IMG/VR virus record: IMGVR_UViG_3300030019_000026
DNA length: 64,000 bases
Strand: one strand, 5' to 3'
Origin: a virus
Shown here: positions 3,680 to 58,200 of the stretch, one piece after another
Layout of the letters: every line of letters begins with the position of its first letter
Position numbering within the stretch: the stretch's first letter is position 1
The notes under the pieces: generated by a model
Told to the model about the DNA's origin: nothing
The model's database searches: none
The model's input: only the letters and a program-made list of their open reading frames with translations
Position numbers and translations under genes: made by a program

Positions 3680-5340
3680 ATTTATTTAAAATATATTTTT
3701 GAACTTATTTAATATTTATTATAGTTACATTTATATAGTTTATTTGTATTATCTTTTATAATAGCTCTAATGGATTATATAAGCCGTTAAACTGGTTTTA
3801 TAATATAATTATATTAATACTCTATTAGTTCCAATATAATATAGCTATTAGAGTTTATATGACGTTATACTACTTTAGTTATGCAATTGTATTGTTATAT
3901 AGTTAGTTGGTTATATAATCTTATTCTATACTTATATCATTTGTAGTTCTTATATATGTTAGTATAGATTATAGATATATAGTTTCATTATATAGTATTG
4001 CTATAAGTTCTATTGTATTGTATAGTAGTTTACTATGTTGATGCATAAGAGTTCTAAAATGGTTTTATAATTGATCCTGATATATTAGTTACTTACTTAT
4101 AATATGTATTCATTCCAGTTAATATATATTAGACACTTATATAATATTGCATTGTTAGTTATTAATAAGTTATGCCTTATATAGTCTTTATGTTAGGTTA
4201 TAACGTTGTTAGTAATGCAATTATAAGTGTTAATATATAAGCGTTGTATGAGTTTGTTAGGATTGTTATAATAGATATTACTATAATACAATGGTATCAT
4301 ATTGTTATTACTGCTTTATATAGATAGTTATTCAATATAGTTTCTAGATGTTAGTTGCATTATGATATTCTTATTAGTTTATATAGTTTTATATGTGATA
4401 TACTATTTAATTATATATGTTATACTAATAGATTGAATATCGTTAATATTGTATACTTTATGTTAGTTATGGTTTGTTTAGTGTATACTATTGTAGTTGT
4501 GTATGATATATTAATGGCATTGTATTAGTGTTTATATTATACAGTTTGTTGTTGAATGTTTATATATGTTATACTTTATATGTATTGTGATATACTATAA
4601 GTGTTATAACAACCTCAGTTGCTTTAAAACGAAAAATAAACCAGTAAATTCAATAATAGTTCGTATTTTAAAAATCAGACCTTGACCAGTTCCCTATCGT
4701 ATGAGTAGATAAAAGATTGATTTTAAGAATAGATATGTAACATTTGATACAATATGAGCATGATAATATCTAACATAAATCAGTAATTATATGCAAACAA
4801 GTTATATATGTACTATATTAAATATACATTTAGTGAAGTTGGTTTGTAACCGTTTGTATGACTAGCTTTGCAGGTTTTAATGTGCTAAAAAGTGGTATTT
4901 TTATGGTTTAGTTGTGTGGTTTATTGGATATAATTGTGCTGGTTTGTATGCTTATAGGTATAGGGGGGCGTGTTTTACATTTTAGTGTTCATTTGCTGAA
5001 CGTAATAGTGCCACATCACATTATGTCGGATATGGAGGTTGGATTTTGACGATAGCATAAAAACACGAACATTAACCATTTTTAACATCGTTAAAGCAAT
5101 CGTCGAGGCTTGTCATACCAACATGTTGAACTATTTAAAAATTAAAAATTTGAACATATTATCTATTAGATAATCCTCGAACCAAGTCATACCAACCTAT
5201 AGAACGATACATACTAACAAACTTATAAATATAAGTAATCTTAAATACGCATTAACTACCCTTAACCTATTGATATCACAAGCCTAAGACCAATTATTTA
5301 CATACAATAAAAAGAGACGCACTACTTGTCCTTATCGTAC
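3680..5340. other. Long non-coding, compositionally skewed region (candidate packaging, terminus or other cis site)
   Basis: No ORF of 60 aa or more. The + strand is T/G-rich and C-poor to ~4980, then C/A-rich after ~5130. A G-run lies at 4963-4968, with clustered copies of a TATGACWAG-type box. Confidence 0.55.
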
Positions 5341-5365
5341 ATCTCTAATTTCCAATTTATATATT

Positions 5366-7048
5366 TTAATTTATTATAGAATCTAATTTTTTGTGCAATC
5401 CTTGAAACCCACATTTTAAATCATATGGATATATGTATAAATGTTTATACCCTACTTTCATCAATTCTCCATATTTTATATATTTCTTTTTCATTTTATC
5501 CATATAATACTGAACTCCCGTAGATTTACTAATATCACTATTATTATACATTCCCCAGTACTCTACAAGATACGTACCTTTATTTAAGCAAACTATCCAA
5601 TCTGGAGTCATTCCATTAATGATTATAGTATCTGGTCTATTTCGTTCATTATGTATTATATTACCCAATTTACTTCTTATCTGTTCATCTACTTGAGCTT
5701 CTTCTAAACTATCAAAGTTACTTCTATATGGATTTACATTAAAGTCCAATTCTATAAATTTATTAGGATAGCAATCATTAATCCAATCAAATAAAGTATT
5801 ATAACTTTTTTTCTTATATAAAGCGTAATATAAAGGGCTGGCATTTTGATGTAATGCTGACTTTGTAACATACAAAGGTATTTTATCTATCGGAATATTT
5901 AAATCTTTCTCTATATAATATTTCATATCAAAAATCATATTGCCTTTGTTTTTATAATAATTAGTTGACTTCAATATAAATTTATATCCTGCAAATTTAT
6001 TATTATAATATTTAACAATAAATTCTAAGGCTGTCCAATTACCACCAGTAAATTGAGCTAACTTTGCTCCCATTAGTAGTTTTTCATAATCTTTAAATGT
6101 TAATATATCATCAATATGTACATTATTTTCTTTAATGTATCTCTCAAATATATCTTTCCCCTCATCAAATGATAACTTGTCAATTGTATAATTAGGATAT
6201 GACCAAGGTCTATTTTTGCAATCATTATTGCTAATGAGTTTGTTCAATTTTATATTGTCAATTTTATAAAATTTAAAATTAAAGTAATTTGTTATATAAT
6301 CTTTATGTAATTGTTCCTTATTTATTAAATTATTATCATAATACCATTGTATTATTTTTAATTCATTATCAAGACTACCTTTAAATTCAAAAGATTTATT
6401 ATGGCAATATGTATTATAAAATTTTATTATGTCTTGTTTATATATATTAAATCCATCATTACCAAACGCTTTATAGATATTTCTAACATATGAGTTATTA
6501 CATATAATAGGATATGTACTAGTTTTGCAATTCTTACATCTATGAGTATAACCATCATCTACCCTATCATCTGGAAGAAAGAATTTATTATCTAAGGGAA
6601 ACTTTCTCTCACATTTAACACAAGTATACCATTTTATATCTTCATTAATATGTTCAGACATATATTCTTCAATACAGTATTTCATGTAATCATCATATTC
6701 AACTTTTCTAACTATATCATATTTATTCTCGCATCCAATATAATCACAAAATATATTATGTCTTTTTAATTTGTTAATATCCTTATTCTTATTTAATTTA
6801 CATTCACTCAAATATTTAATCCAACCATCTTTATTCATACAATTAGTCTCTTGTGGGCTTGTACCTTTAAAAGTATAATCAATAATATATCTTTTCACAT
6901 AATACTCGTGTTTATTTTTTAAAATAGTAGGATTATAACTTTTTAATAGAAATTGCTCTACTACATACTTAATCGGATACCATTTCTCACCTCCTTCCTC
7001 ACAATAAGGAATAATAACACCGTCTAACTCAATTTGCTTGTCCTTCAT
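5366..7048 (-). CDS. Putative free-standing endonuclease (Zn-finger plus C-terminal PD-(D/E)xK-like domain)
   Basis: CVKCERKFPL...CKNC Zn finger; C-terminal MTPDW...YLVEYWG nuclease-like motif. Own sigmaA-type promoter (TTGACA-17-TAATAT) near 7140-7170. Confidence 0.55.
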   Translation of the reverse strand: MKDKQIELDGVIIPYCEEGGEKWYPIKYVVEQFLLKSYNPTILKNKHEYYVKRYIIDYTFKGTSPQETNCMNKDGWIKYLSECKLNKNKDINKLKRHNIFCDYIGCENKYDIVRKVEYDDYMKYCIEEYMSEHINEDIKWYTCVKCERKFPLDNKFFLPDDRVDDGYTHRCKNCKTSTYPIICNNSYVRNIYKAFGNDGFNIYKQDIIKFYNTYCHNKSFEFKGSLDNELKIIQWYYDNNLINKEQLHKDYITNYFNFKFYKIDNIKLNKLISNNDCKNRPWSYPNYTIDKLSFDEGKDIFERYIKENNVHIDDILTFKDYEKLLMGAKLAQFTGGNWTALEFIVKYYNNKFAGYKFILKSTNYYKNKGNMIFDMKYYIEKDLNIPIDKIPLYVTKSALHQNASPLYYALYKKKSYNTLFDWINDCYPNKFIELDFNVNPYRSNFDSLEEAQVDEQIRSKLGNIIHNERNRPDTIIINGMTPDWIVCLNKGTYLVEYWGMYNNSDISKSTGVQYYMDKMKKKYIKYGELMKVGYKHLYIYPYDLKCGFQGLHKKLDSIIN

Positions 7049-12507: not shown

Positions 12508-12785
12508 TATTTAACATCTCCCTTTTTACTATATATTTCTTTTAATCTTTCTACACCTTTAGGTAGGATATAATAAGTTTTTGTATTCACCAATTTTACA
12601 CCTTCAGCTATTAGTTCATATTCCATTAAAGCATTTAATGCACGATTTACTGTGCTTGAACTTAAATTTATTTTTTTAGCTATCATATCTTTTGTCATTC
12701 CCCTAGCTTCACATAAACCTAAGTCGTCTTGCTTGTTCCTAACAGCACTTAATACTAAAAATGAGTTACTGTTTAAAATAGACAC
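12507..12785 (-). CDS. tubR: Winged-HTH centromere-binding protein TubR
   Basis: 92 aa with HTH (MTKDMIAKKINLSSSTVNRALNAL) and wing (KTYYI); coupled to tubZ; GGAGG SD and GTG start. Confidence 0.8.
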   Translation of the reverse strand: MSILNSNSFLVLSAVRNKQDDLGLCEARGMTKDMIAKKINLSSSTVNRALNALMEYELIAEGVKLVNTKTYYILPKGVERLKEIYSKKGDVK

Positions 12786-12873
12786 TTGGTAATACCTCCT
12801 TCATATGTTCGTATTTCTATTATATTCAAGTTATTATCAAAATGCAACCATAACTTTTTAAATATTATTATAT

Positions 12874-26897: not shown

Positions 26898-27203
26898 ATG
26901 AACAAAGAAGGATTATTAGAATTAACAAAAAATGCATTAGGACTAGAAACAAAAAAAGAAGCTGAGGGTTTTCTAAAAGAAGTAGATGCTCTAATGGAAG
27001 CATTATCTAATGGATTAGAAGTAGGACAAAAAGTTAAGGCTGGTAAATACATAGAAGTAGAAAAGAAACATGTTGAAGCTAAACATTCGGATGCTAGAGT
27101 AGGAAGAAATCCTAGTACCGGAGAACCAATAAATATTGATGCTAAGGATTATCCAGCATATGATAAAGTTACAATTAAAGCAACTAAAGCTTTAAATAAG
27201 TAA
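26898..27203 (+). CDS. hup: HU-family histone-like DNA-binding protein (YonN-like)
   Basis: MNKEGLL...; ARVGRNPSTGEPINIDA...; KATKAL. Confidence 0.9.
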   Translation: MNKEGLLELTKNALGLETKKEAEGFLKEVDALMEALSNGLEVGQKVKAGKYIEVEKKHVEAKHSDARVGRNPSTGEPINIDAKDYPAYDKVTIKATKALNK

Positions 27204-27349
27204 TAAGACATTTGAGAAGGATTAGATTAGAAATGATTTAGTTCTTCTTTTTTATTAAAACAAATTAATAAAATATTGATAACTATACTATTATATGTTA
27301 TTATAGTTATATAAGTTCTAAGAGGTATCTTTAAAAGCCCCTTTCAAAT

Positions 27350-27460
27350 ATAGAGACACATTGAGGAGTCATGACCTTAATTAAATAGCTTATCTCAATC
27401 GGCTATGTCTCTATTTTTATTAATGATTGAGAAATAAATTATAGAAAGAAGATTGAGAAA
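27350..27460 (+). ncRNA. Structured three-way-junction 5' leader (copy B)
   Basis: P1 ATAGAGACA/TGTCTCTAT; P2 loop AGTCATGA; P3 loop TATCTCAATC complementary to GATTGAGA at 27425 and 27451. Confidence 0.6.
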
Positions 27461-27461
27461 T

Positions 27462-28466
27462 ATGAAAAAGACAATAGTAGATTATGATGAAACTTTATGG
27501 ATGATACCATACTTTCAAGGTGGGTATGACGAAGCTAAAAAGTATACTCCACATACTTCAAAGAGAGTTAATTTTAAATGTCCTATTTGCGGAAGAGTAA
27601 AAGAGAAATCCACTACAATAAATAGTTTATGTAATACTCATTCAATAGGCTGTATTTGTAATGATGGAATCCCATATACTGAAAAAGTAATATTTAACAT
27701 TTTGGAGCAATTAAAAACTGATTTTATATATCAATTCAAAAAAATAAATGATTTATGGTGTGAAAACAAAATATATGATTTTTGTTTTGGACTAGATGGA
27801 GAAAGATATATTATAGAAACTCATGGAATTCAACATTACGTACAAACTAATAGAAAAAATGCAAAAACATTAGAGGAAGAGCAAGAAAATGACATAATTA
27901 AAAAAGAACTTGCTCTAGCAAACGGAATTAAAAAAGAAAATTATATAGTAATTGATTGTAGATACTCAGATTTAGAGTTTATAAAACGCAATGTATTAGA
28001 CAGTAATTTGGCTACTATTTTTGATTTAAGTAAGATTGATTGGAATAAAGTAGAAGAGTTTGCATTATCAAATCTAGTAAAAGAAATATGTGTTTATTGG
28101 AATGATAATGGTATTACAATGAATGAAATTGCAGTAATGTTTAATTTATGTCCAACTACGGTGTCTAGATATATAAGTAAAGGAATAAAATTGAATTGGG
28201 TGAATAAAATAGAATTCATAAATAATAAAGATTATTCAATGAAATTAGCACAGAAATATGCAAAACAATGTAATTCTAAGCAATTAAAAGTGTTCAAAGA
28301 TGGAGTATATTTAGGTAAATTTAACTCAACTAGGGAACTAGAAAGAATATCATTAGAAAAATTCGGTGTTAATTTTAATCATAGTGAAGTATCTAAAGTA
28401 TGTAAAGGTAAATATAGACAATATAAAGGCTATACATTTGAGTATGTAGAAAAAGAAGCATGTTAA
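27462..28466 (+). CDS. Free-standing homing-endonuclease-like protein (paralogue of 16175 and 58202)
   Basis: FKCPICG, CICNDG, IYDF...YIIETHGIQH, IVIDCR, C-terminal NUMOD1-like EVSKVCKGK..YKGYTF. ATG at 27462 preferred over TTG at 27453. Confidence 0.7.
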   Translation: MKKTIVDYDETLWMIPYFQGGYDEAKKYTPHTSKRVNFKCPICGRVKEKSTTINSLCNTHSIGCICNDGIPYTEKVIFNILEQLKTDFIYQFKKINDLWCENKIYDFCFGLDGERYIIETHGIQHYVQTNRKNAKTLEEEQENDIIKKELALANGIKKENYIVIDCRYSDLEFIKRNVLDSNLATIFDLSKIDWNKVEEFALSNLVKEICVYWNDNGITMNEIAVMFNLCPTTVSRYISKGIKLNWVNKIEFINNKDYSMKLAQKYAKQCNSKQLKVFKDGVYLGKFNSTRELERISLEKFGVNFNHSEVSKVCKGKYRQYKGYTFEYVEKEAC

Positions 28467-28535
28467 GATATGCTTCTTTTTTGATATAAAAAATAATATA
28501 CCGTAAGACGGTGGTAGGGAAAGTGGGTAAAAATT

Positions 28536-30107: not shown

Positions 30108-30190
30108 AATTGCATAGAAGTAGAAAATGGTTCTCTACAGACTCGAAAGAGTATCTCAGATGATGGATACACCGACCATCCTATGCAATT
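30108..30190 (+). ncRNA. 83-nt four-way-junction (cloverleaf-like) structured RNA candidate
   Basis: Perfect 10-bp closing stem AATTGCATAG/CTATGCAATT enclosing three hairpins, one with a GAAA tetraloop. Confidence 0.55.
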
Positions 30191-32169: not shown

Positions 32170-33186
32170 TTGATAACAATGAAAATAGGAAATTTAGAAG
32201 TGTATGGTATCATATATAAAATAGAAAATTTTGTCAATGGTAAAGTTTATATTGGACAAACTATAAATGGGTTTGATAAGAGATATCCTTATAATGGAGT
32301 TGATATTGAAAGAGTTTATAATTATTCTATTTATAATAAAAATAATTACAGAAATTATAATGACCATTTATTTAAATCAATTAAAAAATATGGATTTGAT
32401 TCTTTTCAGATTAATAAAGTGTTTGATATGGCATTTTCACAAGACGAACTAAATATTAAAGAACAGTGTTGGATAAAATATTACAATTCTGCAAATGGAA
32501 ATTATGGTTATAATAATGATGAAGGTGGAAATAGTGGGATTCCTAACAATGAAGCAAGAGAAAATATGAGAAATGCACAAATTAAAATTCCAATTATTCA
32601 ATTAGATTTAAAAGGAAATCTAATAAATGAATGGTCTGGAGCAAGAGAAGTTTCTAAAAAATTAAATATTAATCAATCTTGTATATGGGAATGTTTAAAC
32701 AAAGGAAGGAAAACTTATAAGGGATATATTTGGATATATAAAACTGAATATTATGAATTAAATAAGAAAGTAGATTTAGATTTTTATACTTTTAATAAAG
32801 GACAAAAGATAGAAATTGTACAATTTGATTTTCAAAGAAATATAATTAAAGTATGGGATAGTGCATTATCCATAGAAAAAGAAACTAATGGATGTTTTGA
32901 TGCAAGCACAATAATAAAAGTATGTAAACATAAATTATTATCTAGTAAAGAATATATATTTTTATATAATAAAGGCAATATTAATGAAGAATTTATAAAT
33001 CATATAAATATATATAATAAGTCACACAAGAAAAAAGTAGTTTTTCAATTATATGATAATAAACTAATTAAGATATGGAAGAGTGTAAAAGAAATGGTTA
33101 TAAATTTTAATGATACGTCTATATATAATAAATTAAATGAAAATAAAGAAATATTAAAGGATAATATCTTTACATATGAAATTTAA
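32170..33186 (+). CDS. GIY-YIG homing endonuclease with NUMOD1-type repeats
   Basis: YGIIYKIENFVNGKVYIGQT; LNIKEQCWI..YGYN; repeated IIQLDLKG...W.S modules. Confidence 0.85.
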   Translation: MITMKIGNLEVYGIIYKIENFVNGKVYIGQTINGFDKRYPYNGVDIERVYNYSIYNKNNYRNYNDHLFKSIKKYGFDSFQINKVFDMAFSQDELNIKEQCWIKYYNSANGNYGYNNDEGGNSGIPNNEARENMRNAQIKIPIIQLDLKGNLINEWSGAREVSKKLNINQSCIWECLNKGRKTYKGYIWIYKTEYYELNKKVDLDFYTFNKGQKIEIVQFDFQRNIIKVWDSALSIEKETNGCFDASTIIKVCKHKLLSSKEYIFLYNKGNINEEFINHINIYNKSHKKKVVFQLYDNKLIKIWKSVKEMVINFNDTSIYNKLNENKEILKDNIFTYEI

Positions 33187-58079: not shown

Positions 58080-58200
58080 ATAGGAACAAGTTAGTTAATG
58101 GGGTTGCAAACCTGTTAATTTAATTAAAGGAGATTTTACTAACCGTCTCCGTTCCTATTTTTTAATATGGTTAGTAAATAAATTAAAGCGAGGTTAGTGT
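58080..58200 (+). ncRNA. Structured three-way-junction 5' leader (copy C)
   Basis: P1 ATAGGAAC/GTTCCTAT; P2 loop GTTGCAAA; P3 GGAGAT/GTCTCC with loop TTTACTAACC complementary to 58169-78 and 58192-98. Confidence 0.6.

Follow-up and report, generated by a model that had tools for sequence, protein, structure and literature searches.

What occupies the 258 nt that separate a gene for an HU-like protein (26898-27203; Pfam Bac_DNA_binding) from the gene for a 334-residue homing-endonuclease-like protein in this A/T-rich phage DNA? The window, i.e. the whole 64-kb stretch that was analysed, corresponds to bases 15482-79481 of a 218-kb IMG/VR virus record, and near-identical DNA is contained in many peat metagenomes. 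Between 27204 and 27452 there is no overlapping open reading frame of at least 40 codons on either strand. The gene downstream of the gap, after which a PIN-PhoH gene comes next, encodes a protein that matches phrog_4538 (4e-39), phrog_9084 'homing endonuclease' (3e-16) and phrog_559, and it is a paralogue of the genes behind two further leaders of the same phage, copies A and C. The gap itself holds copy B (Table 1), which belongs to an extensive, uncatalogued family of 5' leader RNAs conserved across phages.

Table 1. Features of the copy B leader and its downstream gene, in window coordinates
Feature	Positions	Strand	Description
Sigma-70-type promoter-like site	27276-27304	+	TTGATA, 17-nt spacer, TATTAT, upstream TG; 10 of 12 matches in a consensus scan
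Candidate extra 5' hairpin P0	27321-27344	+	AGAGG / CCTTT; read from sequence, tentative and weak
P1 5' arm	27350-27358	+	ATAGAGACA; helix 1 covaries at 8 of 8 pairs
P2 hairpin	27361-27380	+	TTGAGG (27361-27366) / CCTTAA (27375-27380); helix 2 covaries at 6 of 6 pairs
P2 loop	27367-27374	+	AGTCATGA (RNA AGUCAUGA), 8 nt; palindrome TCATGA (UCAUGA) at 27369-27374
P3 hairpin	27386-27405	+	TAGCT (27386-27390) / GGCTA (27401-27405); helix 3 covaries at 7 of 7 pairs
P3 loop	27391-27400	+	TATCTCAATC (RNA UAUCUCAAUC); carries the complement of the boxes
P1 3' arm	27406-27414	+	TGTCTCTAT; nine Watson-Crick pairs with 27350-27358
Single-stranded U/A-rich linker	27415-27424	+	UUUUAUUAAU; U-rich after P1 in most members and in the int-alpA consensus
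Box 1	27425-27436	+	Octamer GAUUGAGA (27425-27432) pairs with the P3 loop and starts the 12-mer GATTGAGAAATA
AAUAAAUUAUAG stretch after box 1	27433-27444	+	Overlaps the 12-mer by four bases at its start
Box 2	27451-27462	+	Second copy of the 12-mer GATTGAGAAATA; octamer (27451-27458) at -11 to -4, the ribosome-binding region
Start codon ATG	27462-27464	+	3 nt beyond the end of the box 2 octamer
Free-standing homing-endonuclease-like gene, 334 aa	27462-28466	+	Zinc-finger, nuclease-core and C-terminal DNA-binding modules

The existence of a three-way junction at this position had been proposed by a sequence-only reading, whose coordinates for P1, P2 and P3 proved correct to the base, with covariation in all three helices. 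The consensus scan predicts a transcription start at about 27311, which leaves approximately 39 nt between the start and P1. The candidate hairpin P0 within this segment is found in the B-type module only, reading AAGGGA / TCCCTT at the same place in a second phage contig (L016, below). The stems of P2 (6-7 pairs) and P3 (5-6 pairs) each include a G-U pair, G27363-U27378 and U27390-G27401 respectively. The core alone (27350-27414) folds into the exact proposed junction at -17.8 kcal/mol (z = -3.3), a value equalled by 2 of 200 shuffles, and in minimum-energy folds the segment 27451-27458 lies outside any strong local hairpin. The octamer GATTGAGA occurs three times in the window when both strands are considered, and every occurrence is within the copy B leader: its complement in the P3 loop at 27393-27400, and direct copies at the starts of the two boxes. 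The loop is complementary to both direct copies at 8 of 8 nt, with duplex energies of -9.6 kcal/mol for box 1 and -9.8 kcal/mol for box 2, which confirms the earlier claim that the P3 loop matches 27425 and 27451, the latter 3 nt 5' of the ATG. The box of copy B resembles a Shine-Dalgarno sequence weakly (GAGA).

Two minor features of the same region were also considered. A tiny frame consisting of AUG, box 1 and UAA is present in copy B (27422-27439, M-I-E-K) and copy C (58164-58181, M-V-S-K), and an AUG stands directly 5' of box 1 in several relatives; a small leader peptide of this form was rejected, as it is present in B and C and not conserved in A, D and other members. On the minus strand there is a promoter-like site at 27466-27438 (TTCATA, 17-nt spacer, TATAAT), the -10 hexamer of which complements part of the AAUAAAUUAUAG stretch, itself common to all four copies A-D and to a small number of relatives. 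Transcription from this site of an RNA antisense to the leader was likewise rejected, since such sites are not above chance here and the excess of G-U pairs described below points to the sense strand.

Membership of a wider family was established with covariance models. A search baited with the paralogous nucleases encoded downstream of copies A, B and C yielded 51 phage loci, several of which have the same upstream design. A first model, R1, seeded with four leaders that all come from other phages, detects both copy B (26.4 bits, E 0.003) and copy A (E 0.001), of which its seed is independent. A second model, R2, was built from 18 matches and detects copies C and D and the leaders in contigs L029, L039 and L127, all outside its seed; it scores copy B at 50.4 bits, copy B being one of its seed sequences. 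Scans of IMG/VR with DNA patterns, followed by the model, resulted in 49 distinct members with G+C contents from 0.20 to 0.55. Across these 49, 93.6% of cells are paired, whereas shuffles give 63.4% and slid partners no more than 58%, and changes on both sides were seen in 21 of 21 stem pairs (covariation score 0.73 versus 0.20). The alignments behind these counts were fitted to the model's structure, a bias towards that structure, though the margin is large, and stem-pair counts on a smaller member set gave the same picture. MAFFT alignments of the copies disagreed in structure and were left out of the pair counts, a loose home-made descriptor scan was too noisy for defining members, and a scan of genome contigs with the nuclease alignment returned four loci, none of which added a leader. 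Cells with G-U are more numerous than those with A-C (53 to 11) and scores on the reverse strand are far lower, which together indicate that the sense-strand RNA is the folded molecule.

These results refute the explanation that the structure is a chance fold in A/T-rich intergenic DNA. Whole-leader folds do give weak z-scores (-1.1 to -1.6), as such an explanation would have it, but the core z-score, the detection of the leader by models from other phages, the covariation throughout the stems and the confinement of the octamer to this one leader in 64 kb leave it practically no probability. The same results revise the relationship among the copies. Copy B had been described as differing entirely from copy A while having the same geometry; the shared design was upheld, but the difference is not entire, since the junction letters and AATAAATTA after box 1 are shared by A, B and C. 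Nor are the three copies independent 'sequence solutions': they are homologous, and all three are found by one covariance model.

A fourth copy, D, lies in the same phage genome outside the window (G000:96023-96090, equal to L171:1501-1568), ahead of a gene whose 487-aa product matches nothing in Pfam or PHROG; the P2 loop of copy D carries UCAUGA, as in B, and its boxes read GUAGGAA twice. Cultured carriers identified by BLAST with a leader are Bacillus phage KoopaTroopa of B. thuringiensis (along with vB_BanS-Thrax2), in which the leader (PP965177.1, 18720-18783) lies between PhoH2-like and GIY-YIG genes, and Sporosarcina phage Lietuvens, in which it (MT104122.1, 3187-3254) lies between the terminase gene and an annotated HNH endonuclease gene. 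Both are confirmed by R2 (46.5 and 36.7 bits, respectively), both are of the two-box type, and the KoopaTroopa leader follows a consensus promoter. Copy B itself combines detection from an independent seed, a match between P3 loop and box, a self-complementary core in P2 and a homing-endonuclease gene downstream on the same strand. Among members with enough downstream sequence, most have a same-strand open reading frame of at least 70 codons starting within approximately 75 nt. One leader copy (L113:1416-1557) begins 8 nt past the final gene of a tRNA cluster in a phage contig, with no open reading frame of at least 60 codons in the available downstream sequence. Another contig, L172, has two adjacent group I introns (5073-5822; 88.9 and 72.6 bits) and a leader before a nuclease gene at 12766-12839.

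The complementarity between P3 loop and box is a property of the family as a whole. When the longest exact complement of each member's P3 loop was taken from the next 60 nt, it averaged 6.9 nt, compared with 4.1 nt when loops and tails were re-paired, and none of 5000 permutations reached the observed value; the best-matching box lies at a median of 10 nt after P1. Box sequences vary by member and always match the member's own loop, being GAUUGAGA in B, AGGUUGAU in A, GGUUAGUAAA in C and GUAGGAA in D, with GAAAGGAA, CGGAG, GAAUGAGG and GAGUUGG among other members. Two subtypes were apparent. In the one-box subtype, comprising many members of mostly higher G+C, the box is a Shine-Dalgarno site a few bases before the AUG and the loop is an anti-Shine-Dalgarno sequence. 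In the two-box subtype, comprising copies A-D and many A/T-rich members, box 2 is the real ribosome site, and box 1 sits where the one-box members have their only box. As the P3 loop matches the gene's own ribosome site, the leader probably throttles translation.

The P2 loop shows a second, separate regularity. Members retrieved with the nuclease bait carry TGATCA, TCATGA, TTGCAA or TAATTA in this loop, and TAGCTA and TTCGAA occur in second copies on these contigs. In a blind scan, in which P1 and the two junctions were fixed and the loop sequence was left free, a palindromic hexamer was present in 24 of 36 distinct matches, where 4.5 would be expected and 2000 shuffles never gave more than 11; several of the rest have a 4-nt palindrome or a palindrome that tolerates G-U. 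Identical P2 stems carry different palindromes, TCATGA versus TAGCTA and TAATTA versus TTGCAA (L336 versus L349, L341 versus L345). Since the palindrome is kept while its sequence changes on identical stems, the sequence signature is that of a loop which pairs with a copy of itself, and the P2 loop probably lets two leaders pair loop to loop. The UCAUGA self-duplex is predicted at -5.4 kcal/mol, a six-base A/U-rich loop-loop helix that is weak by nearest-neighbour energies. The hexamers do differ among A, B and C, but the expectation that heterodimers should not form on this account fails genome-wide, since copy D has the TCATGA of copy B; with UCAUGA in both loops, cross-pairing of B and D would be possible.

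A role for the junction chiefly as a 5'-terminal stabiliser against 5' exonuclease, with the loop-box match secondary, would fit the position of the predicted transcription start, which in many A/T-rich members (for example A, C, L029, L033, L096, L068 and KoopaTroopa) falls at the 5' end of P1 or a few bases from it, judging by a consensus promoter. It would leave unexplained both the co-variation of loop and box and the self-complementary P2 loop, and copy B has its predicted start well upstream of P1; this role is judged very improbable as the main one.

The genes behind the leaders point in a common direction. All downstream proteins with a recognisable function are homing-type nucleases, of at least four unrelated classes: the treble-clef/PD-(D/E)XK-like group found in this window, GIY-YIG with NUMOD3 or AP2, LAGLIDADG, and HNH-repeat ('homing endonuclease associated repeat') proteins; a few others matched nothing or a family of unknown function. 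The association with nucleases also holds for members identified by the RNA pattern alone. Within the window, a GIY-YIG gene at 32170-33186 has no R2-type leader upstream by either the model or the descriptor.

The B module also recurs in another phage, on contig L016 (equal to L058), where the likeness extends from the -35 hexamer to approximately codon 4. The two leader cores are about 96% identical, the changes falling only at unpaired positions or converting G-U to A-U, and the nuclease behind the L016 leader is 38% identical to that behind copy B, with an extra N-terminal domain of approximately 157 residues. That a near-identical module heads so divergent a nuclease indicates that the promoter, leader and translation start are exchanged as a unit. 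A variant of B in DNA runs from peat has single-base indels in the P2-P3 junction and in the T-run that starts at the last base of P1, with the stem pairs intact. Among PhoH-like loci of related phages, 1 of 44 has an adjacent nuclease gene and 43 have none, as expected for a sporadic mobile gene; the upstream genes are too diverged to set the borders of an insertion. Joints of DNA contigs in the peat runs have sides of less than 30 nt, and none cleanly removes 27250-28500. Mimicry of a homing site by the box was considered and rejected, there being no other close copy in the 64-kb window.

The recurrence of the module bears on a protein-based explanation, in which the three 8-12-mer copies would be DNA operators through which the DNA-binding domain of the nuclease represses its own promoter. 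Such autorepression is documented for I-TevI, via an operator resembling its homing site (PMC2988022), and the gene-specific box sequence and the C-terminal DNA-binding modules of the nucleases would accord with it. Several observations make it quite improbable here: the same boxes stand before the divergent nuclease of L016, four unrelated nuclease classes share the leader design, the inverted copy of the box is always in the loop of a covarying hairpin, the box is a plain Shine-Dalgarno site in many members, G-U pairs mark a sense-strand RNA, the boxes follow the promoter and do not overlap it, and the flanking genes have no further copy of the box.

The reading favoured here, held with moderate confidence, is that copy B is a portable promoter-leader module of nuclease genes, in which a pseudoknot between loop and box masks the ribosome site. 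The module would consist of its own promoter, the three-way junction, the U-rich linker and the translation start. P1 would close the junction, which may hold the P3 loop beside the sequence that follows P1, and the loop would then form the pseudoknot by base-pairing with a matching box located immediately 3' of the junction. In copy B the loop could pair with box 1 or box 2 equally well. Occupation of box 2 by the loop would conceal the ribosome site and hold the nuclease at low levels, and box 1 may serve as an alternative 'parking' site that sets how frequently masking occurs, or as a second lock within a dimer. UCAUGA in the P2 loop is the putative contact that joins two leaders. Translational repression, switching between boxes and dimer formation are accordingly all predicted from sequence and structure, and the sign of the loop's effect is uncertain: the boxes are identical and box 1 is both nearer and transcribed first, so that the loop might stay there and leave the ribosome site free.

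A possible alternative function for the same elements is that the junction and U-tract act mainly as a transcription stop, or yield a processed small RNA of approximately 70-110 nt, whose P3 loop would target the boxes of full-length messages in trans, with read-through needed for nuclease production. The U-rich stretch after P1 in most members and in the consensus of int-alpA, an RNA typed as sRNA by Rfam, would agree with this, as would, though only as a weak hint, an RNA-library contig of 173 nt from a wetland metatranscriptome, which is identical (100%) to 27250-27422 and ends 8 nt after P1. However, this contig starts upstream of the predicted promoter, contigs do not define RNA ends, and carry-over of DNA is possible. 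At copy B, P1 has 9 pairs, 3 of them G-C, and is followed by UUUUAUU, yet a terminator scan of the + strand reports none there; P1 is A/U-rich, the U-run is interrupted or offset from the stem in many members, and an open reading frame follows closely on the same strand in most of those with enough downstream sequence. A stop or small RNA as the main function is hence considered rather unlikely. The 173-nt contig begins just after the hairpin of the HU gene; other RNA-library contigs match within the nuclease gene (28158-28397), the region being covered partly and at such low depth that gaps carry no information.

An extension of the masking model, offered as a long shot, is that the palindromes constitute a 'kissing code'. 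Leaders of the same code would pair as their concentration rises, and the two anti-box loops of the dimer would clamp both boxes, so that message dose would set nuclease translation and the leader would act as a copy-number sensor made of RNA only. Divergence of the codes within one genome would keep cross-talk low, and the same logic might explain int-alpA.

The masking model, if it holds, has several implications. Homing endonucleases have to be kept at very low levels, and control of their synthesis has so far been known case by case, from the T-even phages. A single RNA design that one covariance model recognises over a range extending from peat phages rich in A/T to phages with 55% G+C may offer a general rule for the taming of free-standing selfish nucleases. 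Int-alpA, an orphan motif in Rfam, gains a suggested function from the family, whose P2 loops further point to a possible natural code of RNA-RNA pairing. The leader is usable as an annotation signal for nuclease cassettes, and the presence of members in cultured Bacillus and Sporosarcina phages makes the predictions testable at the bench.

Searches of Rfam at gathering and permissive thresholds (E <= 10) assigned no family to copies A, B and C or to 11 member loci, and the literature searched contained no description of the leader RNA family. The closest known design is int-alpA (RF02996), an orphan motif typed 'sRNA' with no known function, the Rfam consensus of which follows the same plan: P1, UAG, a short P2, an A-rich junction of the GAAAAG type, a P3 loop with CCUU, the closing strand of P1, a U-run and AAGGG. 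Some members of the leader family have the very same CGAAAAG junction, while copy B has the geometry, the U-run and the match between loop and tail, with degenerate junction letters (CA, UUAAA). The two differ in P2, which has 4 pairs and a 5-nt loop in int-alpA and 6-7 pairs with a 7-10-nt loop containing a 6-nt palindrome in the leader family, and in the two boxes carried by copy B. A true int-alpA, used as a positive control (L203:9511-9579, 40.4 bits; gathering threshold 35.8 bits), lies 18 nt before a homing-endonuclease gene of the treble-clef class and is aligned in register by R2, at 11.6 bits. The same contig also has an R2-type leader at 4542-4601, before a GIY-YIG/AP2 nuclease gene. 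The leader family and int-alpA are probably homologous, related designs. Copy B was nevertheless not filed under RF02996, given the low score of R2 on int-alpA and the failure of the int-alpA model to find a match at E <= 10 on 27200-27520 or at E <= 1 in the 218-kb genome.

Another phage-associated RNA with a multi-stem junction, the skipping-rope RNA (RF02924), is present in the same gene block at 30110-30188 on the + strand; it is a separate family, with four stems and other conserved letters, and is not the leader of a nuclease gene. The match (61.6 bits against a gathering score of 36.7) falls in a 420-nt gene-free stretch, which the sequence-only reading had described as a cloverleaf. 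The P2 loop has a parallel in the dimerisation initiation site of HIV-1, a loop with a 6-nt self-complementary core and unpaired purine flanks, in which the core varies among relatives and stays palindromic. The P2 loops of the leader family have the same kind of core, but they belong to the leader of a phage message rather than to a packaged genome, their cores are A/U-rich with U first and A last, and the dimer is putative.

In biological setting, the nearest counterparts are the leaders of homing-endonuclease genes in T-even phages and phage Aeh1, masking of the ribosome site being documented for I-TevI, I-TevII, I-TevIII and segB of T4 and for mobE of phage Aeh1 (PMC2988022). As in copy B, a structured leader precedes a selfish nuclease gene; in those phages the ribosome site is base-paired and little enzyme is made (PMC2988022). 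The T-even element is a simple local hairpin that encloses the site, combined with a nested late promoter giving transcripts that escape it (PMC2988022), whereas in copy B the hairpin loop of a three-way junction would pair with a linear box in a proposed pseudoknot, and the sole + strand promoter-like site 5' of the gene precedes the entire leader. The leader family further differs from the T-even hairpins in spanning phages of very different G+C and in possessing a second, self-complementary loop.
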